A DNA stretch of 64,000 nt. Origin: a virus. Taxonomy: Duplodnaviria > Caudoviricetes. The DNA lies in IMG/VR virus record IMGVR_UViG_3300011339_001202, positions 5,099 to 69,098 of that record; one strand, given 5' to 3'. The notes under the pieces were generated by a model. It was not told where the DNA came from and did not search any database. It saw nothing but the letters and a program-made list of their open reading frames with translations. A program made the translations under genes and the position numbers. Of the stretch, positions 26,901 through 58,988 are shown one piece after another; within the stretch, counting starts at the first letter, position 1; each line of letters opens with the position of its first letter.

Positions 26901-27097
26901 AGCACCCCTATAACCTGATTGACTCCGGCAGGGAGGGTGCTCGATACAATTTGATTACCATTCACCATCACACCGCCGGACAAGTTGCTGTCATCGGTGG
27001 AAGCACCAAAGCGCAGGTTCTTAGCATCTCTGGCCTGATTGGGCTTGATAACCCTATCATCTAAATCTGGAGCTACGGAGTTTATCCTGTGTATCAT
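23942..27097 (-). CDS. tail nozzle / stabilisation protein (P22 gp10-like)
   Basis: N-terminal DLDDRVIKPNQARDAKNLRF; beta-rich, 1051 aa. Confidence 0.65.
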   Translation of the reverse strand: MIHRINSVAPDLDDRVIKPNQARDAKNLRFGASTDDSNLSGGVMVNGNQIVSSTLPAGVNQVIGVLADLELQVVYFCLHNSLGAYGIYRIKTVNNVDVVEAILGGTFNTGSWLNFVLDSDVSMTSIDGKLYWTDNINQPRMVNIEKGIRTQLFLAGNGPGDDTYPPVPQQWHYTQIKRAPQELAVISLINRDGNRLPLNFSLADASVDYGNIFSEDYAWQFSYYYVYDNEEESRIAPITYAVWYNENITVSIPSSEYGKYLQNNSLIKRVVFIYRKNNEGSWNVLKTIPNNSSFTGSFTALNMNLLPATPVSSNITSNYFDAVPRLSSTNEIAQNRINHGNYLTDYPNWTDLNLDLQLIKNPIINQTTLAGGNRSFYRGFYNVGIELLDEWGRRIAVVNQKTIEIQNYIYNGTGINYLSGQDFFVPFFFGEDGNNCYKLKYTITGDFPSWCKYWRVVYSKNQSYNYFYKTVVKTYAWYNDGSVDYLATTSPPSFGWQNKNYTLKGIAVELSSQEPFLFTDGEEQYISIAQEYPNYFPPFVNLTADQQNPPLKEYKIKKQVGSMLYIENIDANLYRGWALIPGGNNSTDSNYFPLYYQVYLYSKKVTPDEFYYQSTSVNEVGSSLTGELFGDCYLNKFKKENQGTSVAVLDFTYEPNRIVVQGTTTVSSNTITAEGYGFSMNIRDIYSQLWISDIGQLNIVNENQKEVRIQNGICFSDPLIAGTQVNGLSKFDPLDIRQAPLENGAITALVTTNATQREPGVMLSIGSYGVSSFYYDSVQLTNVDGTTNIAVSDRYLASQRPLQGQFGCKQLRSVTKTPLAAVYWWSDVVNDFIRYSNAGLERLGLTYMFGNKLRTEVAGKKAATVYDYVTDEVILMPRGGSSFVFSERYKTFQGMREYINANGSTPERGISISQKMYHFVNGSPWATTVNTPKNNFFAVSRNPELTIITNEAPSVVKQWNSIKVFGPKPENVTMTSGDAEGFVRQSYISPSWWIQRKGEYDAAIRRDSSNGNAMTGKVMESRILYSTFVFDASRFEKLNFIEVKSNMSVVQ

Positions 27098-27098
27098 A

Positions 27099-30000
27099 TC
27101 AATAATTGTCTGGCAGTTTGAAGCCTATTTTTTTCACCTGCATCTGAGCCTGCTTTTCAGCAATCTTCTCGGCCTTACTTTTAATTTCATTGTCTGAAAT
27201 CTTGAAGTTGTTTGCCTGAGCGTTTTGCTTTATCATCTTAGAGTAATTTTCTACAGACTTCTCATAGATGCTCATGAATTTCTTTGCATCAGAGGCATCC
27301 ACATAATAGCCCATATCGCCAACCTTGTATGTGAGCTTGCTAAGAAAATTATCCGGAACGCCAGCACCCCTCCCCTCGTTCACCCAGTTCTTATACTGGC
27401 CGCTGTCTTGAACACGCATAGTTCTGAGAAGCTTGTCGCTGTCCGCTGTGGCAAATATACTTTCCAGAGCTCTTACTTTCATTTTAGAAACAAAGTAAAG
27501 ATCTCCAAGTTTGAGCATCAGGGCAGTTGCCTGCAGTCCAAGGGCCCAAGCCTCTGCCTCATCTCCGTTTTTAATTGCCTTTTGCCCACTCTGCCATAGC
27601 GGTTCAAGAATAGAGTATGCTCCGGGAAGCTCGCTTTGCTTGGCATAAAGAAGATTAAATCTTTCCTTAGCCTCCTCCTCGGTCTCCGCCATTTCATCTT
27701 GAGCCCATTCGGCGGTTTTATTAACCAGCGTTTTAATAGAGTCTCCAATGATGGATGCATACGGGCCGACAACTGTATCGATTCCAACGCCTGCAAGGAT
27801 TTGATACCAATACTTATCACGGTTCTTAGCCTCCTCGTCTTCGTCCTCTTCCTCGAGCCATCCAAGAGCCTGCCCCATTTCACGAAGCAGCTCACGCATG
27901 CCTCTGGTGGCTATTTGGAATATTACTTGCTGACCCAAGAATCCTATTGCCTGAAGTCCGGCCATTCTCTTTTGAGTGGCTGTATATCCGGGCTTGGTTA
28001 GAATGCCCATGTTATTCCAGAACTGAGCCGTGGCTACAAAGGTGTATGTGCTAAGGAAGTACAACCACTTTTTGTATGACTTAGCATCCTTAATTTCCAT
28101 TGGAAGGAAGTGTCTGTTGGCCGTACTATTAGCAGACTCGGCAAAGTTCTCGGCAGAGGCAAGAGCTGTTTCGTTGAATCCTTCTGCGGCCTCCTTAATA
28201 AAGTCAATTCCAATTCCACGCTCGGCCAGATACCCGGTAAGCAACAATTGTTTTTGAGTAAACTTGTTTGCCTTAACCAACCATTCAGGAGAGATTTTAT
28301 CAAGGAATCCTCTGGCCTTGTCAGAAACAATATCTCCTTGGTAGTACTTTGCCTCAAGCTCATTATAAGCAAGCTGCTCGGCATAAGGGGCACTGGTATT
28401 ATTGAAGAACTTGTTTAAAGCATCTTCCAATGCTGGATTACCCATTGCCTGTCTCATTAAGGCCATTGCCTTTAATGATGCATCCTTGTTAGCAACAAAA
28501 CCTTGAAATGTAGCAAGAGGCTGTTTTACATACTGGGTAAAGTTGTTAAGAACTGTGGATGTAATTGTGTTGATAGCCGTGTCCGAGAACCTCTCCAAGA
28601 ACGCCCTTGTGTCTGGGAATATCATTGGGTCACGCAGGATCCCGCTTACAGAGGAAATCAAATACTTCTTAACAGCATCATTGGTCTTGGTGTCTGTTAA
28701 TATAGAACCCTGATTTACCAGAGCGTTAGTATAAGCGTAATCCTTTGATAGATGTATGGTGGCATTAATGTCCCACAATCCGTTTAAGGCTGTCTCATAT
28801 CCATCAAGAATATAGAACCCACCGTCCCATGGCATTGCAGTACGGCCCCTGTTCCTGTCAGCAATATCGGTGGATTGCTTGTTGATTACAGGATCTATGC
28901 TACCCATTTGAGGCAACTGGTCTCCCTGTCCATAAGCAATGTCTCCAGAAGAAACATCCACCTTGTAGAAACTTCTTGGGAAATAATCTTGAATCAAATC
29001 AAAATCACGGCCATGATAAAGCCTAAGCGCATCGGCATATTGCTGGGTCTTTTCCTGCAATAGTTTTTGCGTGTAGTCCCAAGCTTCCTTTACATTATTA
29101 GGAACTGCGGAATCAATGTCAAAATCTTCAATAGCCTTCCACTGCCCGTTCTCATCTCTGATAGCACCAAGCTTTGCAAGTGCATCGGTAGCTCCATTGT
29201 AATAGTGCTCGAGCATTCTCATCTCACTGCCGCTGCTTGAATATTGCTTGGCATTCTTAATCCTATCACGGAGATAGTTCATTTGAGATGTCAGCACATC
29301 GGCCTTCAAGCTTGTGGTTTGACCCTTGCTCTGCTCCTTGAAAAACCCATAAGCACCAAGTAGGAACCTCTCCGGCAGGCCAATCTTTAGATCGGCAAAC
29401 TTCTTGTTCAACTCGTCACGCATTGTCTGTGTGTCGGAAGTAACTCTGGCGGCATTTCTGTCCCAGCCTCCAACAAGAATCCTGCGTATCTCATTTGCTC
29501 CAGCGGCCACGCTTTGCAGCTTTGCGGAGATACCTCCTGCGGCAAGCTTGTTAATTGTAGCACGAATTGCGGTTTGCTTCAAAGTCTTTCCGCTATTCAG
29601 GGCCCGGGTCATTTCTGTAATCTGTCCAATATCAAACAGCACTCCAGTCTCGTCATACACTTTCAGCGCATTCAGTATCTTGTACAGGGTTTCTGTAGTA
29701 AGAACCGACAAGTCCATCTTGCTAAGGTCATTTACGGCAGAAATCTGAGAGGAGTATTGATTAAGGGCATCACTAACGGCAAGCTCCGCAATTGGTCTGC
29801 TGTTAGCCCTAATCTTTACTGTTGGCTTAGCTCTCTCCTTGGCTGGCTTTCTTGCTGCTGCCTCGTTATAGGCTGCATCTATTTCGGCCATTGTGAACTT
29901 CTGCTCTGCGTTGGTTAGCCTTGAGGAAATAAAGTTCAGGGCCATTTCACGCAACTTGATTAGCTCGGCCTCATCGGCCAAATAGAACTTAGGCGTTGCC

Positions 30001-33000
30001 AGATTTGACAGGAATAACTTATCGGCCTTGCTTAGCTTCTTATTCTTAGCAATTGCCTTGAGCATCCTGAACGATTCCTTTGCCTGATTTACTTTGTCAA
30101 GCAGGGCCTTGTTCTTAACAAGCCTGTCTACAAAATCCAAAGCATTATCCAAGTCGGCAGGGCTAAGAATAAAATTCCTAAACTGCTTCAGTAGAGCCCG
30201 GGCCTGAGGAACATTAAGCTTGTTGAGGGCCTGCAAATCTTTTACATAATCAAAGAAATACTCGGTCTCGGTTTTTGCTCCGATTCGCTCCTCGTACTTC
30301 TGCACCATTTCATCAATGGCGGCCTTGTCAAGATTTGGAACTGCCTCAAGAATCTTTCTGATTTTCTCTACAGCCTTTTCTGTATTGACATTCTCTTTGG
30401 CAATTATATCACGGATCTGGTCACGAACGCTGGCAGGCAAATCTCTTCTACCCATGGATGCCTGAACATCTTGAACAGTATTTGTTGCTGCTTGCATAGC
30501 AGGAGAAACCCTACTGCCCTTAGACTGCTGTATATCGCCACCGACAGGGATGTTTAGGCTGGAGGCAGCTTCTCCAAGGTGTATCTTATTAAAAGATGCA
30601 TAATCCTCAAATGCTGTACCACCATCTCGAGCCATCGGCTTTGCGCTAAAGCTTCCGGCATCCATACATCCCACTTGAATTTTACTCAAAGGAATTCCGT
30701 ACTTAGCAGCAACTTTATCAATGTCCTGCTTTAGCATATTAAGCGAGCCAGACATTTCCCTTACCTTGATTCCGTTTGGAGTTTCAGCAATAATAAAGAA
30801 CGCCCCTCCAGAAAATCTATTGTAGTTGTTTTTTGTAGGGCTAAACAAAAGAGAATTTATTTGATTGCCTTGCTTATCCGTAAGAGCATAAATTCCTTTT
30901 TCAAAATCCTTAGCATCATCCTTTGCATACCAATTGATGTTATCAGCACCAACCTGAACAAGCTGAGTCATAACGATGTCTTCGTTATTCACATCGTTCA
31001 GCTTTTTAAATGTCAGCTTAACGCTATCTCCGCTGATTCTTTTAAATGTTGGGACATAATTTTTTGGATGGTCTCTTTTTATCTCAGCAAGCAATCCTCT
31101 TTTTAATTGATTTAGTTTATTGTTGCTGGTAAGAGTTGTAAGGTCATCATATGAAATCATAAAATGGCCAACTCCTTCGACATTGTCTACTCCGGACTTT
31201 TCATACAAATCAAAATTGCCTTTACTCGGCCCTGCCACATATGTTAAATCTCCGTTGTCGGCATCTCTAACATACATCCAAAGACGGCTTTTCCCGGTTG
31301 GGTCTCTTTCGTCTTTTATAGAGCCACGAACAGTAAACTTAATTGGAGTCTTTGCATTTATTGTAATTTGCTGAGCAGGCTTTGCTGTGTCTGGGTCCGC
31401 CATAACTTTTGACATATCCACAAACCCCTCTTCTTCTGTAGGCACTCCAATTCCAAATTTAATTGTCAAAAATCTGGAAGCGTTCTGATATACGCCAGAA
31501 GCAATTGGACTGCTGAAATAAATTGCAGGAGCAGCAACAGCACCGCCCATAAGCATTACAGCGGCTCTGTTAAAGGCAGCCTTGCGAATCCTTTGAGCGG
31601 CTGCTACAATAAAGCTCTTTGCCTTGCCTGAAAACTTTGACAGGCCGTCAAGACCTTTAGTGAAGTATTCTTTTACTGCATTGTAAATAGCCTTGCCTAC
31701 AGGCTCCTTGCCCGTGTGTTGTTCAGCAAATTCATCATACCCTTCAATATCAGAAACGGCATTCTCCATTGCCTCAAATTGACGAGCACCAGCAGCAAAC
31801 TCATCAAATGTGATAAGCCTGCCCATCTGATTAAATTGATCAACAGTTTCAAAATCATAAAAGACTTCTTCAATCTGCTCAACTTTCTCTTTCTCCTTTG
31901 CTGCCTCTTCAAGAGAAGCTCCCATCTCGGCCCGGGTCTCATTGTCCATTGACTGGATCATTGAGCGGACTTCCTTTGAAGTGAGGGCCTCAAACTCAAC
32001 TGAAGCCTTAAACTCTTCAAGAGCTTCTGCTACGCTGGCCGATTCGTCAAGCAAGTTTGCGAATTCTGTAGCAGCATTTGCAAGAGCATTAGCCCTTATT
32101 GTTCTGCTTCCATAGCTGCCTTGGGGCTCGGATAAACCTGCTCGTCCTCGTCCTCCTCCGACAGCCCTCCCGACAGGAACTGATTCAGCTCCATCTCCTC
32201 TTCTTCCGAGACTTGCTTGCCCAGAATCAATTCCAGACTCTGCCTGAACAGATCCGCTCCAAGTGGGGTCTTCGATTCCTCCTGCATCTTGGAGGACTTC
32301 ATTTCTTGTTTCATTTATTGAGAGTTCTTGATTTGCGTAATTATTCCAAATTTTTTCGATAGCTTTTACTTTTTTGCTATCTCGTTTAAAAGTGTCCGTA
32401 AACAATCCTCTAACGGCTTCCCATGTAATACTTTGAACCTGTCTTGGAAGCAGACCGGATTCTTTAGCTGCAAGTATATAGGCTTCAGCAAAAGCATAAT
32501 ATAATCCTTTAATTCCAAACGGAGCAGAATTGCTTACTCCTTCAGAACCAAAATTCTGTAGCACTTGTTTGGAGCTTCCAGATAAAGGCAATAAAAGAGC
32601 CGCTGCAATTGCATGCGTATCCATTGTAACATCATTATCCTCGGACATTGGATCAATGATGTTGTTGTTAAAGTTCCTAATCTTATGCATTTCGCCAAGA
32701 GTCCTTGTGATGCTCTCTTGACTACCATCAATATAAACAGATACCGCCTTACCTATCTCAACATAACTACCCCAAGCAACTTTTGCTTTATTGCCTTTGT
32801 TAGTATAGGCTGGCCCAATTACTGCGCCATCTGGTCTTAAAATATTATAATCCTTAGTTGTGTTTATTTCATTCCACAAACGAGCATAATATGGCTTAAG
32901 GCTATCCTGCACTTGGCTCATTTTTACGCCAACAAGTGCATTTAATTTTTGAATTAATTTATTGCCTGACTCTATTTTTTCAGAAAGCTTCTTTTCGGCT

Positions 33001-34847
33001 TCAACTATCTTTTGTTTAGTTTTTACTACTGCCTCTTTATTCGCAGTATTTCTTTTTTCAGAGTAAGCCAATTTAGCCTCTTCGTATTTTTTTGTGGCAT
33101 TACGAAGATTCTTTTTTGCGTTTGCCAGACCTTCTATGTTAATAAGCTTTTGCTTATCAACCATCTCTTTACTCATTGGAGGATTTTCATCAAAAGCCAT
33201 CATCACCATTTCGGCGAGTCTAACATTTTGATACCAATCCTTTTGAGGTGATAAGCAAGCAATCATTGCGGCAGCCTGCTCCTCTGTAACTGGATATTTT
33301 TTTGAAAAATCTTGAGCAAGAATATTTGCCCCATCATACCAAAGCGTTGAAATCTCCTTAAATTCTGGATTGAATTTATCCATCAAGAATTTTAAGTTAT
33401 CAGCAACCTGTCTTACAAGAATATCATATGCTTTCTGGGCTTCTTCGATTGTTTCAATTTCCCCGAATTTCTGAACCCCAGATACTATAGGCCACTTTGA
33501 GATTATATTTGAATTGCTTATAAATACATCTGGAGCCTTTTCTTTTACATACTCTAATGATAGCTCTGAAGCTTCTTCAACTATTTTCTTTTTATCTCTT
33601 GTGTAAACAGCTAAGCCTTTGGAAACTCTTTTTCCGGGACGAGCAAGAGTTCTTATACTTTTTACATCAATGTCCTTTACAGAAGATGCTCTTGCTTGAG
33701 GCCCCATTAAATTAGGGGCAATGTTTTCTTGATCGCCGTAAAGAATTCCGTATCCACCAAGCTCCCTCTCCAGAACTTGCTCAATACCTCTACCTTCTTT
33801 AAGAGCCGATGAAATACTTGAAGCAATTCTTATAAATGTCCTTTCATCAGATGTATCCTTGAGACGGAAATCTGTAATAGCAAGCTTATCTAAAATAGTA
33901 TTGATGAAATCAACAAGTGCCTGCTTTAAACTGAAAGGCAGCGATTCAATATTAATGTTACCAGAAGCAATTTGTGCAACTGTTTCAGTAATCATTTCAT
34001 CGTCCTTCTTTGCCTTATTTACTTCAGGAGACAAATCTGGATTATCGTAATCGCTAACAAATTGGTCTACCTTGAAGAAGTCTGTTGGGTTTTTGGCCTT
34101 GTATTCATTAAGCCCATTGATGAGCCTGTTATAAAGCTCTGGGTTAACATTGCGGATGATGTTTATTATTGGGTGAGTTCCTTCGTGGAATAAAACCACA
34201 TTAGGCATGCCCGGAACATCTACATCCTTATTAACCAGAATAACTCCATTCTGATAGAAATACCATCCCTCCGCAGACGGGACATATTTTGTTCCATTTC
34301 TTGCATGAAGGAATTTAGCAGCCGCTTGGAAATCTTCATTACTAAGAAGCATTACCCTTTGGCCAATATTACTTAAAGACCTTGCAATGTTTGCAGCGGC
34401 CTCTTCTTTTGTTGCAGCAGTTGTTTGCTTAACAGCCTTTGCAAACTTCCTTAAATTGTCTGCAATTTTCTGAGCAGCAGTTTTAGGCTTGCCTTCTTTG
34501 CTCTCTGGCTTCTTCTCCTGTTTTGACTCTGGCTTTTCCTCCGGCTTACCCTCTGGCTTCTTTTCCTCCGGCTTGCTTTCGGGCTTTTTCTCCTCCTTAG
34601 GGGCCTCTTCTTTCTTGCCCTCTGGCTTTGGCTTTTCCTCCGGCTTTACCTCTGGTTTAGCAGCAGCAGCTTGAGCAGCAGCTTGCTTAATATCCGCCTC
34701 GCTAAGGTTGTGAATTTTGATTACATCCGGAGCGTATTTCTGAGCAACATCTGCCCAGTATTTAGGATTCTCCAGAAGGAACTGCCTAAATTCATTGTAG
34801 GACATAGGATCGCCCTTATGCCCCTTAGGAGTGAAAACGCAAGTCAT
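27099..34847 (-). CDS. giant polyvalent ejected virion protein (2582 aa)
   Basis: LFHEGTH zincin motif; WYDGA..LSPQKDWYQNV / TMDTHA / QSITWEAVR domain; long helical C-terminus. Confidence 0.65.
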   Translation of the reverse strand: MTCVFTPKGHKGDPMSYNEFRQFLLENPKYWADVAQKYAPDVIKIHNLSEADIKQAAAQAAAAKPEVKPEEKPKPEGKKEEAPKEEKKPESKPEEKKPEGKPEEKPESKQEKKPESKEGKPKTAAQKIADNLRKFAKAVKQTTAATKEEAAANIARSLSNIGQRVMLLSNEDFQAAAKFLHARNGTKYVPSAEGWYFYQNGVILVNKDVDVPGMPNVVLFHEGTHPIINIIRNVNPELYNRLINGLNEYKAKNPTDFFKVDQFVSDYDNPDLSPEVNKAKKDDEMITETVAQIASGNINIESLPFSLKQALVDFINTILDKLAITDFRLKDTSDERTFIRIASSISSALKEGRGIEQVLERELGGYGILYGDQENIAPNLMGPQARASSVKDIDVKSIRTLARPGKRVSKGLAVYTRDKKKIVEEASELSLEYVKEKAPDVFISNSNIISKWPIVSGVQKFGEIETIEEAQKAYDILVRQVADNLKFLMDKFNPEFKEISTLWYDGANILAQDFSKKYPVTEEQAAAMIACLSPQKDWYQNVRLAEMVMMAFDENPPMSKEMVDKQKLINIEGLANAKKNLRNATKKYEEAKLAYSEKRNTANKEAVVKTKQKIVEAEKKLSEKIESGNKLIQKLNALVGVKMSQVQDSLKPYYARLWNEINTTKDYNILRPDGAVIGPAYTNKGNKAKVAWGSYVEIGKAVSVYIDGSQESITRTLGEMHKIRNFNNNIIDPMSEDNDVTMDTHAIAAALLLPLSGSSKQVLQNFGSEGVSNSAPFGIKGLYYAFAEAYILAAKESGLLPRQVQSITWEAVRGLFTDTFKRDSKKVKAIEKIWNNYANQELSINETRNEVLQDAGGIEDPTWSGSVQAESGIDSGQASLGRRGDGAESVPVGRAVGGGRGRAGLSEPQGSYGSRTIRANALANAATEFANLLDESASVAEALEEFKASVEFEALTSKEVRSMIQSMDNETRAEMGASLEEAAKEKEKVEQIEEVFYDFETVDQFNQMGRLITFDEFAAGARQFEAMENAVSDIEGYDEFAEQHTGKEPVGKAIYNAVKEYFTKGLDGLSKFSGKAKSFIVAAAQRIRKAAFNRAAVMLMGGAVAAPAIYFSSPIASGVYQNASRFLTIKFGIGVPTEEEGFVDMSKVMADPDTAKPAQQITINAKTPIKFTVRGSIKDERDPTGKSRLWMYVRDADNGDLTYVAGPSKGNFDLYEKSGVDNVEGVGHFMISYDDLTTLTSNNKLNQLKRGLLAEIKRDHPKNYVPTFKRISGDSVKLTFKKLNDVNNEDIVMTQLVQVGADNINWYAKDDAKDFEKGIYALTDKQGNQINSLLFSPTKNNYNRFSGGAFFIIAETPNGIKVREMSGSLNMLKQDIDKVAAKYGIPLSKIQVGCMDAGSFSAKPMARDGGTAFEDYASFNKIHLGEAASSLNIPVGGDIQQSKGSRVSPAMQAATNTVQDVQASMGRRDLPASVRDQIRDIIAKENVNTEKAVEKIRKILEAVPNLDKAAIDEMVQKYEERIGAKTETEYFFDYVKDLQALNKLNVPQARALLKQFRNFILSPADLDNALDFVDRLVKNKALLDKVNQAKESFRMLKAIAKNKKLSKADKLFLSNLATPKFYLADEAELIKLREMALNFISSRLTNAEQKFTMAEIDAAYNEAAARKPAKERAKPTVKIRANSRPIAELAVSDALNQYSSQISAVNDLSKMDLSVLTTETLYKILNALKVYDETGVLFDIGQITEMTRALNSGKTLKQTAIRATINKLAAGGISAKLQSVAAGANEIRRILVGGWDRNAARVTSDTQTMRDELNKKFADLKIGLPERFLLGAYGFFKEQSKGQTTSLKADVLTSQMNYLRDRIKNAKQYSSSGSEMRMLEHYYNGATDALAKLGAIRDENGQWKAIEDFDIDSAVPNNVKEAWDYTQKLLQEKTQQYADALRLYHGRDFDLIQDYFPRSFYKVDVSSGDIAYGQGDQLPQMGSIDPVINKQSTDIADRNRGRTAMPWDGGFYILDGYETALNGLWDINATIHLSKDYAYTNALVNQGSILTDTKTNDAVKKYLISSVSGILRDPMIFPDTRAFLERFSDTAINTITSTVLNNFTQYVKQPLATFQGFVANKDASLKAMALMRQAMGNPALEDALNKFFNNTSAPYAEQLAYNELEAKYYQGDIVSDKARGFLDKISPEWLVKANKFTQKQLLLTGYLAERGIGIDFIKEAAEGFNETALASAENFAESANSTANRHFLPMEIKDAKSYKKWLYFLSTYTFVATAQFWNNMGILTKPGYTATQKRMAGLQAIGFLGQQVIFQIATRGMRELLREMGQALGWLEEEDEDEEAKNRDKYWYQILAGVGIDTVVGPYASIIGDSIKTLVNKTAEWAQDEMAETEEEAKERFNLLYAKQSELPGAYSILEPLWQSGQKAIKNGDEAEAWALGLQATALMLKLGDLYFVSKMKVRALESIFATADSDKLLRTMRVQDSGQYKNWVNEGRGAGVPDNFLSKLTYKVGDMGYYVDASDAKKFMSIYEKSVENYSKMIKQNAQANNFKISDNEIKSKAEKIAEKQAQMQVKKIGFKLPDNY

Positions 34848-51511: not shown

Positions 51512-51602
51512 CCGCTGGTGGGGGACTCGAACCCCCATCTCCCAATTATGAATCGGGCTGTTTCCCTAAGGTGCTATTTGTTCACACTTACACCAACCAG
51601 CG
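51512..51602 (-). tRNA. atypical tRNA with CAU anticodon (Met or Ile2), 91 nt, no encoded CCA
   Basis: acceptor CGCTGGT/ACCAGCG; D stem GTGT/GCAC; anticodon arm CCCGA-TTCATAA-TTGGG; T arm GGGGG-TTCGAGT-CCCCC; 15-nt D loop and 13 nt between D and anticodon arms. Confidence 0.65.
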
Positions 51603-52245: not shown

Positions 52246-52260
52246 TGCGATGCAATAGTA

Positions 52261-52504
52261 GGAAATATTTTACCAAAACGGTAATCCATTGCCATTTATT
52301 TAAAAGAATAATTACAGAAAGTGGAAATATTTTACCGCTGAAAAGTGCCATAAAATACTGCTTGTCAATAGGTTATAGCGATGTTCATTTCTGATAGTAT
52401 ATATTATATCATGACCCTGTTTTAAATGAATACAGGCAATATACCCCGAGAGGATCATCTGGGGGCATATTCTTGGATAAATAGGCGTGGTAAAATATTT
52501 CCAC
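52261..52504. repeat. operator-like repeats GGAAATATTTTACC
   Basis: GTGGAAATATTTTACC at 52321-52336, its exact inverse at 52489-52504, 14-bp copy at 52261-52274. Confidence 0.65.
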
Positions 52505-53573
52505 ATGCCCCCCTTTATTACTGCCGTGGGAAAGTGTTTCCCTCATACTGGGTGGGTGGGTTTTAAAATTGTGTAAAGCAGAATGATGGTAAAGTGTAAA
52601 ACGGGAATGGCTTGATGTGCAACCGTAAAACGGGAAAAGTAAATACGATGAGGGTTCCCCCCAGCCAGCCCCCCGGCTCGAGACGGCTCGGAAACCGCTT
52701 TCCCTCGAGGGGGTACCCTGTTTCACAGCCATGCGTAACGGCCTGCGTATCAGCACCTTAGCACAGCACCGGAAACAGATATGCGAAAAGAAATAAGCCT
52801 GAACCTGAACCAGTTAAGCAGGACAGGAGGCACAGCAACCGGAACCAGCACAGCAAAGCAGGCCAGCAAAGCAAGCTATCCTTGCCGCTTGTCCTGTATT
52901 GCATACCATTCAACACAGCACCCACAGCCAGCCCGTTCTACAGCACCCGTAAAAGGTTACCTACCTTACACAAACAAACCCAGCACAGCCCTGCTACAGG
53001 CCCTGCGGAAAGGTATCTGGTGAAAGTATCCGAAACAGGTAGAAACCCTTCCACAGGCAAACGGAATGGAGTATACCCTTCCCCTCATTCCCTGCATGCT
53101 TGCCTGCTTACCATTGGCCAGAAAAAGAACCAGTTTTTCCGGTGTTTTTGTCAGCGTTATAAGAAATGCCGTTTCCAGTATAATTTGCTGTGGGACAGCT
53201 CATTACAATGCCTTTTTCCCTTGTTTTTTGTGCTGTTTTCTGATTTGGGCCCTCCGCTGGAAAGGCTGTTTTGCCTTTTGTCCTTTGTCCCGCTCCGTTC
53301 AAACGAAATGTAAACCGCTCGTACCAATTGTGTCGTTACAATCCAACAGCGGGCCACACCTTTGCATCATCAAAACGGGGAGGAAGCGACCTCCCCTGTA
53401 AGGGGGCCCCTGCGCCCTGCGTTCTTTGACATGTTGGCCCGTAATTGTGTAAGGTTTAGCACAGCACTTTCGAGTGTAAGTAGTCGGGCAAATTACCAAA
53501 TGGGTGTAGGGGGTGCGAACCTTCCGAAACAGGCTGGAGACAAATTCGCGTCTCGCCTGTCTAAATTAAAACA

Positions 53574-53636
53574 CAGCCAGTCTTCGGCGGGGCCCTATTC
53601 ACGGGGCTGCGGGTTCGATTCCCGCACTGGCTGCCA
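53574..53636 (+). ncRNA. tRNA-like element 1 (long form with extra hairpin)
   Basis: CAGCCAG/CTGGCTG; TGCGGG-TTCGATT-CCCGCA; CCA; internal GCCC..GGGC hairpin. Confidence 0.8.
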
Positions 53637-53674
53637 TGCACAGCGTGTTGCTGTCAGTAGTAAACCAAAAAGTT

Positions 53675-54037
53675 ATGTTTATTCCTAATCAGTTGAAAGG
53701 TGTTTTTTCTTTGTCAATTAACATTAAATTGTTCATTCCTTCCACTACAGAAGTCGACAAAGAAGGGTCTGAGTTGCAGGCCATTTACGAGCGTAAGGCG
53801 TTGACTTTGTTCTCTGAATTGTTTGGAGGGGCCACCAGTTACGGGGCCATGGGTGCATGGTCTTCGCAAACCGCCGGCCTTGTTACGGAAAAAATCCAAA
53901 TTGTAGAAAGTTTCGCTTCTACGGATGCCATTGCCACGGGCTTTGAAGCCGTTGCAAAACTTGCCGGAGAAATGAAGCAGGCCATGGGTCAGGAGGCCAT
54001 TGCGCTCCAGTATCAGAACGAAATGTTTTTCCTGTAG
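53675..54037 (+). CDS. DUF3574-like small alpha/beta protein
   Basis: FIPST, LFGGAT..GAW, LVTEKIQIVESF, QEAIAL. Confidence 0.55.
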   Translation: MFIPNQLKGVFSLSINIKLFIPSTTEVDKEGSELQAIYERKALTLFSELFGGATSYGAMGAWSSQTAGLVTEKIQIVESFASTDAIATGFEAVAKLAGEMKQAMGQEAIALQYQNEMFFL

Positions 54038-54044
54038 TCTCTTT

Positions 54045-54092
54045 GCCCCTGCATGGTGCAGGGCCTTGGTTCGAGTCCAAGGCAGGGGCCCA
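54045..54092 (+). ncRNA. tRNA-like element 2
   Basis: GCCCCTG/CAGGGGC; linker CATGGTGCAGGG; CCTTGG-TTCGAGT-CCAAGG; CCA. Confidence 0.85.
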
Positions 54093-54132
54093 TTTCCAGC
54101 GTGTTGCTGGTAAGTTGTAAACCAATAAAAAA

Positions 54133-54396
54133 ATGACAGAATTTCAGTGGGCATTAGAAAATGCCGAAAAAAATGGGTTCAATGTGTGTAAGGATTACAC
54201 CGAACAGGCCATTCCCATGATTGGGTTCAAGTTGTCAAAAAAACATGTTTGGCACTGGTTCCGCATCACCTCCGAGGGCTGGCTTATGTTCGACCATAGT
54301 TACAGCATGAATACAGGCAAAAGCAAGCGTGGTGTCACAGCCCGTATGCATGCCTGCAACATGTTTTTGCCTCTCGGAATTAATCACGCCCTATAA
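54133..54396 (+). CDS. hypothetical early protein
   Basis: 87 aa cassette gene. Confidence 0.65.
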   Translation: MTEFQWALENAEKNGFNVCKDYTEQAIPMIGFKLSKKHVWHWFRITSEGWLMFDHSYSMNTGKSKRGVTARMHACNMFLPLGINHAL

Positions 54397-54405
54397 TGGG
54401 GCCCT

Positions 54406-54453
54406 GCTCCGGATTGGATAAGCATGCAGGTTCGAGTCCTGCACCGGAGCCCA
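54406..54453 (+). ncRNA. tRNA-like element 3
   Basis: GCTCCGG/CCGGAGC; D-loop-like ATTGGATAAGCA; TGCAGG-TTCGAGT-CCTGCA; CCA. Confidence 0.85.
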
Positions 54454-54488
54454 TGTCCGAGTTGGACAGCAGTAAACCAATTTTTCTT

Positions 54489-54683
54489 ATGCAAAAGTTT
54501 GCAAAATTCATGTTTTGGGTTGTAGTGTTTCCAATCCTTATGGCCATTTTTTACATGGGCGTGTACCACTTGTTTGTGGCCCTTGGGGCTACCTCCGGAG
54601 GGCTGGTTCTGTACTACATTTTTGTCACGCTCACCTCAATCGGAATTGTAGTGTATGGCCTCACCGAGGTTGTTGTAAATTGA
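54489..54683 (+). CDS. small two-TM membrane protein (64 aa)
   Basis: ATG after the GTAAACCAA leader; two hydrophobic helices. Confidence 0.65.
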   Translation: MQKFAKFMFWVVVFPILMAIFYMGVYHLFVALGATSGGLVLYYIFVTLTSIGIVVYGLTEVVVN

Positions 54684-54690
54684 TTCCTTC

Positions 54691-54740
54691 GCCCCTGCAA
54701 TGGTTTGCAGGTTCCGGTTCGATTCCGGTTCAGGGGCCTA
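54691..54740 (+). ncRNA. tRNA-like element 4 (ends CTA)
   Basis: GCCCCTG/CAGGGGC; TTCCGG-TTCGATT-CCGGTT; CTA; no downstream hairpin. Confidence 0.75.
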
Positions 54741-54760
54741 ACTTTAAACCAGTTTTTCTT

Positions 54761-55000
54761 ATGAAGTTGTACGAAATAGTTCTTAAATCTGATTTCGATT
54801 ACGAATGGTTCAAAACCATTTTAGTAATGTCGTGTACACCGCTCACAACTGAGTCCGAGGGCATAAATATTATGGCCAATGTTGACAAAGAATGGGGCCA
54901 ATATGTTTCCGAGGTGCACGAAAAGAGGGTGCTTGTTTGCGCCCGAGGTGACGAGGAGGCCAGCGACATGTTCGAGGTGCTTCATTTGTTTGGCCAATAG
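54761..55000 (+). CDS. hypothetical early protein (79 aa)
   Basis: MKLYEIVLKSDF...; ATG after the TTAAACCA leader. Confidence 0.6.
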   Translation: MKLYEIVLKSDFDYEWFKTILVMSCTPLTTESEGINIMANVDKEWGQYVSEVHEKRVLVCARGDEEASDMFEVLHLFGQ

Positions 55001-55049
55001 TCTCAGGCAGGTTTGCCTCGGGGCGGTTCAATTCCGCCTCTGAGACCTA
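55000..55049 (+). ncRNA. tRNA-like element 5 (ends CTA)
   Basis: GTCTCAG/CTGAGAC; GGGCGG-TTCAATT-CCGCCT; CTA. Confidence 0.75.
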
Positions 55050-55068
55050 ACTTTAAACCAATAAAAAA

Positions 55069-55347
55069 ATGCCAAGAATTTCTTTTGATTACCCTGCCCT
55101 CGATACATGGTACGAGGCTACAGGCGAGGGGGCCAGCAAGTGGGACATTTGCACAAAGTGCTTTCATATCGATTCACGCCAGTTGATTGGCAAATTACGG
55201 GGCCCTTATAATGGGGAGCCCAGTCCCGAGCCCTCCGAGCCCCTGTCGCATTACGACATTGGCGAAGAGAATCCTTCAATGCATGAAGGCGAGGATGCCT
55301 TTTGTGATTGCTGTGACAGGAAATTGATGCTGGGCCGTAATTATTAG
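55069..55347 (+). CDS. Cys-rich (zinc-binding) early protein
   Basis: CTKC ... CDCC pairs. Confidence 0.6.
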   Translation: MPRISFDYPALDTWYEATGEGASKWDICTKCFHIDSRQLIGKLRGPYNGEPSPEPSEPLSHYDIGEENPSMHEGEDAFCDCCDRKLMLGRNY

Positions 55348-55352
55348 CCCTC

Positions 55353-55402
55353 GCCCCTGCAATGGTTTGCAGGTTCCGGTTCGATTCCGGTACAGGGGCC
55401 CA
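55353..55402 (+). ncRNA. tRNA-like element 6
   Basis: GCCCCTG/CAGGGGC; TTCCGG-TTCGATT-CCGGTA; CCA; 41 nt identical to element 4. Confidence 0.85.
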
Positions 55403-55437
55403 TGCTACAAGGTAGTAGCAGTAGTAAACCAACCAAC

Positions 55438-55692
55438 ATGCAAAACATATTTTTGCTCGACCCTGCAATGGGTTACCCTTTCGCCTCAGTTTCCACTCAG
55501 GCCCCAAGTATTACCGCTCGCATTGTGCTGGCCTGCGCTCAGCACTTTGGGCTTGCGGTACATGCCATCGATGCCACACATTTCGAGAACTTTGCCACCC
55601 TGCAGGTAATGTTTGAGAATGGCCAGTCGATTTACATTGACACAGCCGTGGAAGGCGAGGATGAGGAAATTGACAGCGAGGGCCCGTTCTGA
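55438..55692 (+). CDS. hypothetical early protein (84 aa)
   Basis: MQNIFLLDP...; acidic tail. Confidence 0.6.
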   Translation: MQNIFLLDPAMGYPFASVSTQAPSITARIVLACAQHFGLAVHAIDATHFENFATLQVMFENGQSIYIDTAVEGEDEEIDSEGPF

Positions 55693-55698
55693 GGGCCA

Positions 55699-55744
55699 GT
55701 TCCGGAATGGTTGTACACAGGTTCGAGTCCTGTGCCGGAACCCA
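55699..55744 (+). ncRNA. tRNA-like element 7
   Basis: GTTCCGG/CCGGAAC; linker AATGGTTGTA; CACAGG-TTCGAGT-CCTGTG; CCA. Confidence 0.85.
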
Positions 55745-55780
55745 TGCCACATGTGGTGGCAGTTGTAAACCAATATTTTT

Positions 55781-56089
55781 ATGGAAATCGAAAAACCAGT
55801 TCCATTTTTCAAGTTTGCCCGTAAGTGCTCTGCCACTGGCAGGGGCATGAATGAAGGGTATTGCTGTCTCGATGGAGACCTTTACTTTGCCGAGGAGTCA
55901 GACCTTCTTGCATGGCTCCGCTCTGACGAGGGTGCTGGATACGAGGGTGCATCAGATGATTTTGTACTGGCAGATGCATACGAGGCCGAAATGTACTACT
56001 ACACCGAGTGGGAAGAACTCGATGAGGACGAGTGGTACGAGAGTGCTTACGAGGATGGCCGTGAGGCTGTGCTGGTGAGCGCAGAATAA
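55781..56089 (+). CDS. highly acidic early protein
   Basis: KFARKCSATGRGMNEGY, then a D/E/Y-rich C-terminus. Confidence 0.65.
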   Translation: MEIEKPVPFFKFARKCSATGRGMNEGYCCLDGDLYFAEESDLLAWLRSDEGAGYEGASDDFVLADAYEAEMYYYTEWEELDEDEWYESAYEDGREAVLVSAE

Positions 56090-56133
56090 GCACGAAGGTC
56101 GTAGGGCTGGTTCGACTCCAGCCCGTGCTTCCA
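56088..56133 (+). ncRNA. tRNA-like element 8
   Basis: AAGCACG/CGTGCTT; GGCTGG-TTCGACT-CCAGCC; CCA; overlaps the upstream TAA. Confidence 0.85.
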
Positions 56134-56166
56134 TGACCGAGTTGGTCAGTTGTAAACCAAATTCCT

Positions 56167-56427
56167 ATGTTTAACGACATTATTGCTTACGAGCAGGGCG
56201 AATTGTCCCCTGCAGAAATTGTGAAATTGTTCGCTGGCCTGATTGCCTCCGGACAGGCTTGGGTGTTGCAGGGCCATTACGGCAGGCAGGCACAGGCATT
56301 CATAAATGCATGCCTCATCAGCCCCGAGGGCGAAATTGATGAGGAAGTGTGTGGATGGGCCGGAATCGATTTCCCAGCCCAGCCGGAGCCCGAGGGCAAG
56401 TTTGTCCGCAGGCATCCATTGGCTTAA
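56167..56427 (+). CDS. conserved small phage protein
   Basis: IIAYEQGEL..LF..LI..G.AW.LQGHYGR.A family pattern. Confidence 0.65.
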   Translation: MFNDIIAYEQGELSPAEIVKLFAGLIASGQAWVLQGHYGRQAQAFINACLISPEGEIDEEVCGWAGIDFPAQPEPEGKFVRRHPLA

Positions 56428-56433
56428 TTGCCA

Positions 56434-56481
56434 GCCCCTGTTTGGAACAGGGCACAGGTTCGAGTCCTGTGCAGGGGCCCA
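56434..56481 (+). ncRNA. tRNA-like element 9
   Basis: GCCCCTG/CAGGGGC; CACAGG-TTCGAGT-CCTGTG; CCA. Confidence 0.85.
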
Positions 56482-56517
56482 TGCTACAGGTTGTAGCAGT
56501 TGTAAACCAATTATGCC

Positions 56518-56799
56518 ATGCAAATAAACACACAAAAGCCAGCCTCCGGCACAATGGAGGCAAAGTTTCCGGTGTTGTACAAATTCAGGAAGGATTTCCC
56601 GATGTCCGGATACGAAATTTCTATGCTCCTCGAGGGTATGGAGAACAGCATCGAGCAATGGGACAAGATGCTCAGGAGAGCCTCCGGTGATGCAAATGAG
56701 GAGCACATGTACAGGATTCTCGAGGGTAAGTTGCATCGATACGACTTGAAGGCTCGGCTCGAAAGGCTTAGAGAAGAACTATTTCCTCTGTCATTCTAA
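56518..56799 (+). CDS. hypothetical helical early protein
   Basis: 93 aa cassette gene. Confidence 0.6.
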   Translation: MQINTQKPASGTMEAKFPVLYKFRKDFPMSGYEISMLLEGMENSIEQWDKMLRRASGDANEEHMYRILEGKLHRYDLKARLERLREELFPLSF

Positions 56800-56805
56800 T
56801 GGCAA

Positions 56806-56852
56806 GCCCCTGCTTGGAGCAGGCTCCGGTTCGATTCCGGAGCAGGGGCCCA
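56806..56852 (+). ncRNA. tRNA-like element 10
   Basis: GCCCCTG/CAGGGGC; CTCCGG-TTCGATT-CCGGAG; CCA. Confidence 0.85.
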
Positions 56853-56888
56853 TGCTACATGTTGTAGCAGTTGTAAACCAATAAGAAC

Positions 56889-57221
56889 ATGCAAAAGAAA
56901 ATCAGCATGAAGAAAGTATGGGTATCCTCCGATGGATGGAGGGGTCGTTTCACTCCAGTGAATGCTGTGGCTGGCTCTGCGGACACAGGTAGCTGGGACG
57001 ATAGTCCTTGCCCCAGTAACAGCGTAACAGCCGAGTTGAATGCCATCAAGAAGGCCCTCAAACAGGAGGGCATCAATTACAAATCTACATGGGGTTCCAG
57101 TAGCAATTTGTTCTGCATCCATCGATACATTGTCGTGGCCGAGGAGGATGTAGAACAGGGCAAGCAGGTTGTTCGCCAGTGGCTGGACAGCAACCGAAAC
57201 GAGTTTGCCTACATCCCGTAA
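56889..57221 (+). CDS. hypothetical early protein
   Basis: WVSSDGWRG..GSWDDSPCPS; 110 aa. Confidence 0.65.
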   Translation: MQKKISMKKVWVSSDGWRGRFTPVNAVAGSADTGSWDDSPCPSNSVTAELNAIKKALKQEGINYKSTWGSSSNLFCIHRYIVVAEEDVEQGKQVVRQWLDSNRNEFAYIP

Positions 57222-57228
57222 AGTAGAA

Positions 57229-57275
57229 GCCCCTGCATGGTGCAGGCACAGGTTCGATTCCTGTGCAGGGGCCCA
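57229..57275 (+). ncRNA. tRNA-like element 11
   Basis: GCCCCTG/CAGGGGC; CACAGG-TTCGATT-CCTGTG; CCA. Confidence 0.85.
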
Positions 57276-57312
57276 TTGTAGCGAATGCTACGAGCCGTAA
57301 ACCAATTACAAC

Positions 57313-57540
57313 ATGATAATAGCAAATGGAAAGCAATTTGACAACTACGAGCACCTCGAGGAATGGTGCATTGATAACGGGCTCCACATTACCATTTTCC
57401 AACAAATAAATGTCCACTATGCTCTTGCCCAAGTCCAGCAACTGGACGAGATGGATGCCGAGGTGAGACGAGCACAGCGCAGAGAAAGAGAGTCTCAGGA
57501 GCAGGGGTTCGCTGTTGACAGGAAGTATCTCGGGCGTTGA
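57313..57540 (+). CDS. hypothetical early protein
   Basis: 75 aa cassette gene. Confidence 0.6.
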   Translation: MIIANGKQFDNYEHLEEWCIDNGLHITIFQQINVHYALAQVQQLDEMDAEVRRAQRRERESQEQGFAVDRKYLGR

Positions 57541-57547
57541 TAGCCCA

Positions 57548-57593
57548 GTTCCGGATTGGATGTATGCAGGTTCGAGTCCTGTGCCGGAGCCCA
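57548..57593 (+). ncRNA. tRNA-like element 12
   Basis: GTTCCGG/CCGGAGC (one G-U); linker ATTGGATGTA; TGCAGG-TTCGAGT-CCTGTG (G-U pairs); CCA. Confidence 0.85.
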
Positions 57594-57633
57594 TTGCAAC
57601 ATAGTGTTGCGAGTTGTATAAACCAATAATAAC

Positions 57634-58026
57634 ATGCTTAACAAAGGCGAAGAAAAAATCATTATTCATGCAGTGGATGGAATCGATAACCTGCTTGATT
57701 GCGAGGAAACAATTGATGGCTCTGAACTGCATCACAGGCTGTTCAACGAGGACTATTTCATCATTGGTAGGTACGAGGCCGAGAAGTTCTTGCAGGACTG
57801 CGGAGGCGTATTTAAGGCCATCGATGAGATAATTCACTACGAGAAATCGAACATGGGAGAGGTGAGCACCGACCTTGCAGAGGCAGAGCATGTGGCAAAC
57901 ATGTACGCCTACATCAAGGGCGAAGAATTTCTCTCAAGGTGCTCAACATTTGGGCATAATTGGGACGAAGAGTTATCTTTGGAAGACCTTCAGGCAATCA
58001 AAGAAGAGCTCCTCGAAATAGCATAA
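57634..58026 (+). CDS. acidic early protein (possible DNA mimic / antirestriction)
   Basis: ELHHRLFNEDYFIIGRYEAE..YEKSNMGEVSTDL..VANMYAYIKGEE; D/E-rich. Confidence 0.55.
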   Translation: MLNKGEEKIIIHAVDGIDNLLDCEETIDGSELHHRLFNEDYFIIGRYEAEKFLQDCGGVFKAIDEIIHYEKSNMGEVSTDLAEAEHVANMYAYIKGEEFLSRCSTFGHNWDEELSLEDLQAIKEELLEIA

Positions 58027-58071
58027 CCCTGTTTGGAACACGCTCCGGTTCGACTCCGGAGCAGGGTTCAA
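58025..58071 (+). ncRNA. tRNA-like element 13 (ends CAA)
   Basis: AACCCTG/CAGGGTT; CTCCGG-TTCGACT-CCGGAG; CAA. Confidence 0.75.
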
Positions 58072-58106
58072 TGAGCAATAGTGCTCAGAACTTAAACCTA
58101 AAAAAT

Positions 58107-58439
58107 ATGTCTATAGAAAAAGTTTATTACCGACACCTTCCCGGGGCCTATGCAGCCCGAGAGGCAAGTCTTAGCCGAGACACTGACACTGACGAGGAAA
58201 GAACAAGTTTCTTATCAGGGTTTCTTCAGGGAGTTCAGTATGCACACCCCGATCCGAATGTCCAGCAATGCCCGTGTTGCGGTAGCCTGTTTGTACACAT
58301 GTCCAAGCACGAGCCCCTGAGGCTGAACCAGCAACTTATGGACAATGGCAAGCAGTATCAGGACATCCTTACATGCGAGTTCACATGCAGAAGTTGTGAC
58401 GAAAGTTTTACCGCCCACCTTAAAATCTCAGGACTATGA
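58107..58439 (+). CDS. zinc-ribbon-containing early protein (110 aa)
   Basis: ATG after TTAAACCTAAAAAAT; CPCC..CRSC. Confidence 0.6.
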   Translation: MSIEKVYYRHLPGAYAAREASLSRDTDTDEERTSFLSGFLQGVQYAHPDPNVQQCPCCGSLFVHMSKHEPLRLNQQLMDNGKQYQDILTCEFTCRSCDESFTAHLKISGL

Positions 58440-58585: not shown

Positions 58586-58611
58586 GAACCTTGTGAGTAG
58601 TTTATGCCATT

Positions 58612-58649
58612 AATGGGGGCGGTCTGTTGACTTGCTCCCATTTTTTTTT
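58612..58649 (+). terminator. intrinsic terminator closing the early array
   Basis: AATGGG..GTC-TGTT-GAC..CCCATT followed by a T run. Confidence 0.65.
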
Positions 58650-58684
58650 ACCTTATCTTTACACCCCTTTAAATTGAAAACATC

Positions 58685-58927: not shown

Positions 58928-58949
58928 TAGAGAAAAATAATTTCAAGAG

Positions 58950-58979
58950 GGACAGCCGTTTGTGCTGTCCTTTTTTTTT
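58950..58979 (+). terminator. intrinsic terminator
   Basis: GGACAGC-loop-GCTGTCC followed by T9. Confidence 0.7.
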
Positions 58980-58988
58980 CTTTGCGCT

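Follow-up and report, generated by a model that had tools for sequence, protein, structure and literature searches.

What might a fold resembling transfer RNA (tRNA), a short hairpin, and a near-uniform leader be doing, again and again, in front of the small genes of a phage? The locus that raises this question lies in a 64-kilobase (kb) window of a 69,098-base-pair (bp) virus contig (IMG/VR record IMGVR_UViG_3300011339_001202; Caudoviricetes); the window is the whole stretch of DNA that was analyzed, and its coordinates are used throughout for this phage. Nearly all genes are carried on the minus strand; the exception of interest here is a plus-strand block of small open reading frames (ORFs) at 53.6-58.6 kb. 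Within this block, unrelated ORFs are flanked by 13 repeated modules, and in relatives of the phage other gene sets lie between similar modules. The array as a whole can be described in two lines.

53570-58110, plus strand: 13 modules, each a tRNA-like element with a leader, 11 of them with a hairpin
53574-58071, plus strand: span of the 13 tRNA-like elements, which have no anticodon; a hairpin or leader is joined to each 3′ end

Tentatively, and at somewhat below an even chance, we propose that the hairpin and the leader (with its motif TAAACCAA) act at the RNA level, as modules for processing and translation within a single polycistronic operon of small genes, a proposal drawn from sequence comparison.

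The tRNA-like elements, which we term mini-tRNAs, are marked by 13 T-loop motifs (GTTCRANTC) on the plus strand between 53613 and 58048. Each comprises a 13-bp helix (acceptor plus T) and the T-loop TTCRANT, and all 13 take up a tRNA-like fold. The 3′ end reads CCA in 10 copies, CTA in copies 4 and 5, and CAA in copy 13. Placement is tight, in that the elements start 0 to 10 nucleotides (nt) past a stop codon and end 22 to 43 nt before the next ATG. Near-identical copies of the module stand beside unrelated genes (4 and 6; 9, 10, and 11). ARAGORN reported no array element as a tRNA, and none reached the Rfam gathering score, copy 1 giving a weak match to tRNA-Sec. Outside the array, on the minus strand at 51519-51569, lies a tRNA, either partial or atypical, whose anticodon loop carries CAU and which is followed by CTA as in copies 4 and 5; it scores 22.7 bits in Rfam (below the gathering score), and ARAGORN finds nothing there.

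Behind the CCA or CAA, a hairpin of 5 to 7 bp follows in 11 of the 13 copies, starting 0-1 nt after the triplet in nine of them and 3 nt after it in two, and its 3′ end falls 17-22 nt ahead of the ATG. Every stem listed in the initial annotation of this DNA was recovered in its place:

53640-53654, plus strand: hairpin 1, ACAGC/GCTGT, 3 nt after CCA
54096-54110, plus strand: hairpin 2, CCAGC/GCTGG, 3 nt after CCA
54454-54468, plus strand: hairpin 3, TGTCC/GGACA, abutting CCA
55403-55420, plus strand: hairpin 6, TGCTAC/GTAGCA, abutting CCA
55745-55761, plus strand: hairpin 7, TGCCAC/GTGGCA, abutting CCA
56134-56148, plus strand: hairpin 8, TGACC/GGTCA
56482-56498, plus strand: hairpin 9, TGCTACA/TGTAGCA, loop GGT
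56853-56869, plus strand: hairpin 10, TGCTACA/TGTAGCA, loop TGT
57277-57292, plus strand: hairpin 11, TGTAGC/GCTACG, T.G at the base
57595-57611, plus strand: hairpin 12, TGCAAC/GTTGCG, T.G at the base
58072-58087, plus strand: hairpin 13, TGAGC/GCTCA, abutting CAA

These 11 hairpins comprise 10 different stem sequences. Their predicted stability ranges from -6.1 to -9.1 kcal/mol, with z below -2 against dinucleotide shuffles in 8 of the 11. A perfect stem of at least 5 bp at 0-3 nt from a fixed point is found at 7.1% of all genome positions; set against this chance rate, hairpins in 11 of 13 copies give a P of about 1.6e-11, although the copies are related and independence is thus overstated. 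The two copies without a hairpin, 4 and 5, have leaders that fold at 0 kcal/mol, and they are indeed the two that end in CTA, as had been pointed out. However, they have a common 3′ part (CCTAACTTTAAACCA) behind different mini-tRNAs, so that the absence of the hairpin counts as one evolutionary event, not two. The suggested link between CCA and hairpin is also weakened by copy 13 and by 11 modules of two related phages, all of which end in CAA yet have the hairpin. In 8 of the 11 modules with a hairpin, the A of CCA and the TG that opens the stem spell ATG (e.g., 53636-53638 and 55402-55404). We rejected this ATG as a start codon because only in copies 1 and 6 does it share the reading frame of the ORF; a public assembly does call the copy 1 gene from the CCATG start (133 amino acids [aa] in L398), running into the module.

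Comparison with other phages gave the hairpin a history. Exact-pattern scans of IMG/VR (with GCAGTTGTAAACCAA, or with T-loop...CCA...TAAACC) returned only single chance matches and ordinary tRNA arrays (e.g., L074), and relatives were therefore located through the primase-helicase. L120 (the same as L321 and near-identical to L119), with a primase 68% identical, has 4 modules, and L320, with a primase 73% identical, has 7. In both, the order is mini-tRNA, N73, CAA, a hairpin starting at the next base, a GAT-rich stretch, a TAAACCAA-like motif, 6-9 nt, and ATG. A model of these CAA-type modules (R1) scored 41-71 bits on its own type and 16-28 bits on the CCA-type modules of the window; a search of about 100 related loci with it gave no further hairpin modules.

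The 22 hairpins of the three phages have 16 distinct stems, and all are 100% paired, which bears out the earlier observation that the stems covary; what is kept is structure, not sequence. Three or four pair types are seen at each of stem positions 3-6, and the basal two pairs (U-A and G-C; UGC...GCA) are nearly fixed. When stem partners were shuffled, pairing averaged 59% and at most reached 81%. Pair counts were taken from base-anchored counts and from an alignment of eight fixed-geometry copies (A5), the alignment of model R1 (A6) being left out as too noisy. In A5, both sides change in 4 of the 6 hairpin pairs, 97.9% of cells pair, and the covariation score was reached by none of 500 shuffles. 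Copy 8 and the L120 module at 15425 have the same orthologous acidic ORF upstream and related mini-tRNAs, and their hairpins are unrelated (TGACC/GGTCA versus TACGCA/TGCGTA); that pairing is kept while the sequences differ marks the hairpin as a selected structure. Six possible wobble pairs (G.T or T.G, two of them stem closing) lie on the sense strand, and, as the stems are defined here, none is of the kind that could form on the opposite strand only. A mini-tRNA precedes the hairpin in 22 of 22 cases, with the hairpin starting 0-1 nt after CMA (CCA or CAA) in 20, and three TAAACCAA-like leaders that have no mini-tRNA (L320 7169, L120 17691, and L120 15729) also have no hairpin. We consider it quite likely that the hairpin acts in RNA, at a boundary created by the mini-tRNA. 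At two of these three leaders, which lie at ordinary tight gene junctions, the motif also serves as the end of the upstream ORF: at L320 7169 the TAA of TAAACCAA is the stop codon of the upstream ORF, and at L120 17691 the upstream ORF reads through TAAACCA to a TAG.

In the leader, both spacing and composition are constant. TAAACC(A/T)(A/G) precedes the ATG in all 13 copies, and in the 69-kb genome the motif occurs upstream of an ATG at these 13 sites only. The motif itself was thus correctly called at the outset; the spacer is slightly shorter than the 6-10 nt then given, at 5-8 nt (mode, 7). The form is TAAACCAA, with TAAACCAG in copy 4 and TAAACCTA in copy 13:

53661-53677, plus strand: leader 1, TAAACCAA, 6 nt, ATG
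54118-54135, plus strand: leader 2, TAAACCAA, 7 nt, ATG
54473-54491, plus strand: leader 3, TAAACCAA, 8 nt, ATG
54738-54763, plus strand: hairpin-less module 4, CTA, ACTT, TAAACCAG, 8 nt, ATG
55047-55071, plus strand: hairpin-less module 5, CTA, ACTT, TAAACCAA, 7 nt, ATG
55425-55440, plus strand: leader 6, TAAACCAA, 5 nt, ATG
55766-55783, plus strand: leader 7, TAAACCAA, 7 nt, ATG
56153-56169, plus strand: leader 8, TAAACCAA, 6 nt, ATG
56503-56520, plus strand: leader 9, TAAACCAA, 7 nt, ATG
56874-56891, plus strand: leader 10, TAAACCAA, 7 nt, ATG
57298-57315, plus strand: leader 11, TAAACCAA, 7 nt, ATG
57619-57636, plus strand: leader 12, TAAACCAA, 7 nt, ATG
58093-58109, plus strand: leader 13, TAAACCTA, 6 nt, ATG

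Adenine is found at -13 in 12 of the 13 leaders, at -12 in 11, at -14 and at -6 in 9 each, and at -3 in 7, and G fills only 5 of the 195 cells from -15 to -1; in the other phage genes, A reaches only about 41% at -12 and -13. In Flavobacterium johnsoniae, ribosome profiling and reporter mutagenesis showed that A at -3, -6, -12, and -13 promotes initiation independent of a Shine-Dalgarno (SD) sequence (PMC6847099), and GeneMarkS-2 found an upstream TAAAAA core motif in Flavobacterium genes (PMC6028130). The phage fits such a setting: an SD-like 4-mer lies upstream of just 3 of 54 ORFs outside the array, as expected with a Bacteroidota host, and its host is, to judge from sequence, probably a member of that phylum. 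Taken with these published determinants, the position and composition of the leader point to a strong, uniform initiation region of host type, in keeping with the uniform SD-independent start that had been predicted, and we are fairly confident that the leader is a translation-initiation element of the Bacteroidota type. It resembles the SD-independent regions of that phylum in having no SD sequence, in being poor in G, and in carrying adenines at -14 to -12, -6, and -3; it differs from host leaders in its far more uniform 8-mer, TAAACCAA, with a CC dinucleotide, and in being limited here to the 13 genes of the array. The leader is separable from both other parts, since in relatives it occurs without either. 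Pairing of TAAACCAA with the TGG-containing linker of the mini-tRNA was considered and rejected, as by eye the complementarity was inconsistent and only 4-6 nt long.

Does each module then drive its own gene, or do all 13 belong to one transcript? The initial annotation spoke of self-contained expression cassettes. This goes too far, as the units hold neither promoter nor terminator and are better described as parts of one operon that serve processing and translation. Behind the hairpins stands GTTGTAAACC or GATTAT; as no U-tract follows any of them and none was flagged by a terminator scan, we rejected them as intrinsic terminators. Terminator-like sites appear after the array:

58606-58650, plus strand: canonical stem followed by T9, the first such terminator-like site behind the array, found by reading the sequence and not flagged by the scan
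58945-58985: second canonical stem-plus-T9 site after the array, flagged by the scan

A scan gave no sigma-70-like site at the modules, nor was the Bacteroidota -33/-7 promoter consensus matched there, and a sigma-A promoter of that phylum was rejected on this ground as an account of the hairpin and motif. RNase III sites were likewise rejected, with stems of 4-8 bp against the roughly two helical turns that ribonuclease (RNase) III requires. The lack of internal terminators and promoters, with canonical terminators only after the array, favors a single polycistronic transcript and, insofar as sequence can tell, cotranscription of the array as one operon. Upstream, 1.3 kb (52250-53570) is without convincing ORFs and contains GC-rich hairpins (e.g., 53377-53396); this region could be the promoter region of the operon or a noncoding RNA. 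A candidate promoter within it, TTGACA-N18-TAAGGT at 53429-53458, is a lead only.

In the mechanism that we envisage, host RNase P would cut on the 5′ side of the tRNA-like element, and RNase Z, or an enzyme equivalent to it, would cut on the 3′ side. The downstream piece would then begin with a 5′-monophosphate and at most about 3 unpaired nt (6 in copies 1 and 2), followed by the hairpin of 5-7 bp; whichever of the two plausible cut sites is taken (after N73 or after CMA), the hairpin begins 0-6 nt from it. Ends with a 5′-monophosphate are favored by enzymes of the RNase E, J, and Y types (PMC10939160; PMC3997798), and a structured end of this kind would hide the monophosphate from such 5′-end-dependent RNases (RNase E/G, J, or Y type). 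The hairpin would end just outside the ribosome-binding region, at its 17-22 nt from the ATG, and the G-poor leader would set AAA at -14 to -12 and A at -6 and -3 for SD-independent loading of the ribosome. That 5′-terminal stem-loops can stabilize mRNAs is established for ompA, papA, and aprE (reviewed in PMC3997798, with reference to Emory 1992 and Bouvet and Belasco 1992). As in those cases, structure matters here over sequence, and the stem would lie 0-3 nt from the predicted processed end; unlike the known stabilizers, which act on primary transcripts, the end here would arise by predicted processing, and the stability is moderate (-6 to -9 kcal/mol). By this analogy, protection of the 5′ end specifically is a possible role for the hairpin, to which we give less than an even chance.

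More distant relatives (L129, L325, L125, L172, L176, L166, and L191; primases 27-46% identical) carry a simpler module, with a mini-tRNA, then CTA, TAA, or CAA, a 17-25-nt A/C-rich leader, and ATG, and no hairpin. The hairpin is thus an add-on of one subclade. Copies 4 and 5 of the window (CTA-ACTT-TAAACC) share this hairpin-less form, and, by sequence, the CTA type without hairpin is the older module, kept in these two copies. In some phages, with primases 45% identical, the slot of the mini-tRNA holds a real tRNA (Rfam, 47-58 bits; L129 14665-14739, L124 1135-1206, and L325 16457-16546). In L129 and L124, ATG follows 13-20 nt downstream; in L325, a 9-bp hairpin and then an A-rich leader stand between the tRNA and ATG, the inserted hairpin lengthening the distance. 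Since real tRNAs must be excised from the transcript, they lend indirect support to the slot as a processing site, and the L325 example shows that a hairpin opening the downstream piece arose more than once. Rfam found no hammerhead ribozyme in the module slots of seven related loci.

Several observations weigh against our proposal. The stop codons before copies 5, 8, and 13 (54998-55000, 56087-56089, and 58024-58026) overlap the first bases of the tRNA-like helix, an overlap also present at the copy 8 orthologue in L120, so that an RNase P cut would leave at most a bare stop codon; such bare-stop messages are awkward for any processing model. Two modules of the window and all of the distant relatives do without the hairpin, which is therefore dispensable. 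A hairpin abutting the CCA could hinder 3′ processing instead of following it. The predicted accessibility of the initiation region is only moderate in longer contexts.

Of the alternatives, the one that survives best holds that the hairpin serves the upstream product, staying on the 3′ side of the mini-tRNA as a barrier to 3′-to-5′ exonucleases and positioning an endonuclease cut directly behind itself, in single-stranded G(A/U)UU, with the mRNA starting at the A/U-rich leader. RN↓WUU is the preference reported for RNase E, and the GAUU, GAAU, or GAGU found after every hairpin in the two closer relatives resembles it; moreover, hairpin-less leaders of 17-25 nt evidently suffice in the distant relatives. 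However, the sequence after the hairpin in the window (CAGUUG) fits an RNase E motif poorly, the mini-tRNA itself is already a stable 3′ structure, and an exonuclease block needs no tight spacing of 0-1 nt to CMA. We regard this explanation as unlikely.

The hairpin might instead be bound by an RNA-binding protein of phage or host origin, for example a translational repressor that turns the early genes off jointly, or a hairpin-specific endoribonuclease. A nearly fixed stem base under a variable upper stem speaks for such a site, and loops resemble one another within a phage (AURR in the two relatives; GWGUU in four copies of the window). Common descent can also explain similarity within a phage, however, and the loops of the window as a whole are heterogeneous (3-6 nt, at least seven different sequences). 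Pfam showed no RNA-binding or RNase domain in the phage ORFs, many of which are without any match. This makes a protein-binding site, in our estimate, quite unlikely.

Very unlikely, in our view, is a folding insulator, a local stem that folds fast and would prevent the variable leader and coding sequence downstream from pairing with the CCA and the 3′ acceptor strand of the mini-tRNA, letting the tRNA-like fold form whatever the gene context. The modules do lie beside unrelated ORFs, with the hairpin set precisely at the border of the conserved fold and the variable sequence, and minimum-free-energy folds of whole intergenic regions show competing pairings in several copies. Yet the G-poor leader already has little pairing potential, and neither copies 4 and 5 nor the distant relatives need a hairpin to fold.

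It is also conceivable, if highly improbable, that the module is mainly a DNA-level substrate for recombination (a PeSL-like or cassette-boundary repeat), the hairpin being an inverted-repeat by-product; such a role may coexist with one in RNA. The near-identical copies beside unrelated genes (4/6 and 9/10/11) would fit, as would the common 3′ half of copies 4 and 5 behind different mini-tRNAs. Assemblies of at least five other sequencing runs also yielded this phage (L399-L403), and those contigs end at a 41-nt repeat common to copies 4 and 6. On the other hand, recombination needs identity, and the hairpins diverge in sequence while keeping their pairing; T-loop and CCA point to RNA. The modules in the five other samples are 100% identical to those of the window, so that they offer no microdiversity usable for variant analysis.

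Least probable of all is that hairpin and TAAACCAA form a promoter, giving one transcription unit per gene, either as a hairpin for a virion RNA polymerase (RNAP) like that of phage N4 (whose promoters are stems of 5-7 bp with a small loop, upstream of early genes) or as a -10-like box yielding leaderless transcripts: stems of 5-7 bp (often with 3-nt loops) upstream of genes, a TAAACCAA-ATG spacing of 5-8 nt that would also fit a -10 box and start site, and a crAss-type muzzle protein in the phage (1051 aa, 23942-27097; PF25731, the Crassvirus muzzle family) speak for it, yet no phage RNAP is confirmed, the hairpin is never seen without a mini-tRNA (22/22) while the motif stands alone in tightly coupled gene junctions, the Bacteroidota -33/-7 consensus is unmatched, possible wobble pairs lie on the sense strand, and known translation determinants already fully explain the leader. 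The array was accordingly not assigned to the N4-type hairpin promoters, as neither a phage virion RNAP nor an autonomous hairpin was found. For the crAss-like virion RNAP, early promoters are unknown and single-stranded DNA is preferred (10.1101/2020.03.07.982082). One candidate for such an enzyme was a 2582-aa ORF (27099-34847, minus strand) that adjoins the muzzle homologue and has DFDID at residue 1908, like the crAss DFDxD; among 1.8 billion representative proteins it has 13 relatives only. It was dropped because its homologues, one of them 83% identical, lack DFDID. Searching the PDB by sequence and by profile matched nothing, tblastn against phages and Atlas searches gave no link to an RNAP, and the phage has no other DxDxD candidate.

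Returning to modules that would act in RNA, the closest parallel is found in plants. The t-elements of plant mitochondria direct RNase P and Z cuts at mRNA ends (Forner et al. 2007, PMC1920247), and the nad6 and ccmC mRNAs lose their stop codon in this processing (PMC1920247). The phage elements are like t-elements in their tRNA-like fold, with a T-arm of the GGTTCRANYCC type on an acceptor stem, in their lack of anticodon function, and in their position at coding-region boundaries; the stop-codon loss that is possible at copies 5, 8, and 13 would likewise recall nad6 and ccmC. They are unlike t-elements in belonging to a phage operon in a bacterial host, in forming a 13-unit tandem array with one element per gene, and in having a covarying hairpin and fixed translation leader fused to the 3′ side. 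Among phages, T4-type genomes reportedly carry PeSL cassettes, which combine a sigma-70 early promoter with a stem-loop beside small early ORFs. Both systems have a repeated intergenic stem-loop cassette and unrelated small ORFs in a plastic region, and both probably aid gene shuffling; in contrast to PeSL cassettes, the modules have a tRNA-like fold and no promoter was found at them. The early genes of T7 are separated by RNase III sites, long imperfect duplexes in a polycistronic transcript. The proposed arrangement is similar in placing one processing signal for a host RNase between each pair of genes, and different in using tRNA mimics and short hairpins, too short for RNase III.

As for the genome in which the array resides, the first 127 nt of the contig equal the last 127 nt, a terminal repeat showing that the assembly is a complete circle of about 68,971 bp. 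Phage markers include a large terminase (phrog_6681), a portal (phrog_6547), and the primase-helicase, and the terminase is 24-27% identical to podophage terminases of Flavobacterium, Cellulophaga, and Maribacter. Scanned with Pfam, 38 further ORFs gave matches to ThyX (PF02511), MazG-like PRA-PH (PF01503), a ferritin/rubrerythrin-like domain, and DUF6549, and to no RNA-processing enzyme. Two antisense ORFs of 196 and 268 aa (56146-56736 and 57085-57891, minus strand) span several modules; they are probably spurious, given the clear protein orthologue that L120 has for the plus-strand ORF at 55781-56089.

What appears to be new here is the fusion, in one module, of a processing signal of the t-element type, a 5′ stem-loop, and a Bacteroidota initiation region; full-text literature searches, whose coverage is incomplete, found no description of tRNA-like punctuation or of a hairpin-leader module in phages. 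We advance with reserve, as doubtful but possible, the broader view that a freshwater clade related to the Crassvirales has a portable three-part module made up of a tRNA mimic that would recruit host RNase P/Z, a cap hairpin conserved in structure only, and an optimized SD-less leader. For annotation, the ATG formed by CCA and TG leads gene callers to stretch at least one ORF into a module, and ARAGORN and Rfam miss the mini-tRNAs. The TAAACCAA motif, placed at -15 to -8, is a candidate for a strong initiation element; for expression in Bacteroidota, the module as a whole is a candidate insulator part. If the broader view is true, one long transcript would be turned into many stable, well-translated single-gene messages, the first tRNA-punctuated, hairpin-capped mRNAs in a bacterium or virus, and the shuffling of gene cassettes would carry the module along. 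At a cost of about 90 nt of RNA per gene, and by way of host tRNA-processing enzymes only, an early operon would act as a set of independently stable, equally translated messages. It would do so with three separable parts (a cut signal, an end cap, and a ribosome leader) in a phylum where little is understood of how mRNAs are processed, how they decay, and how SD-less initiation works.

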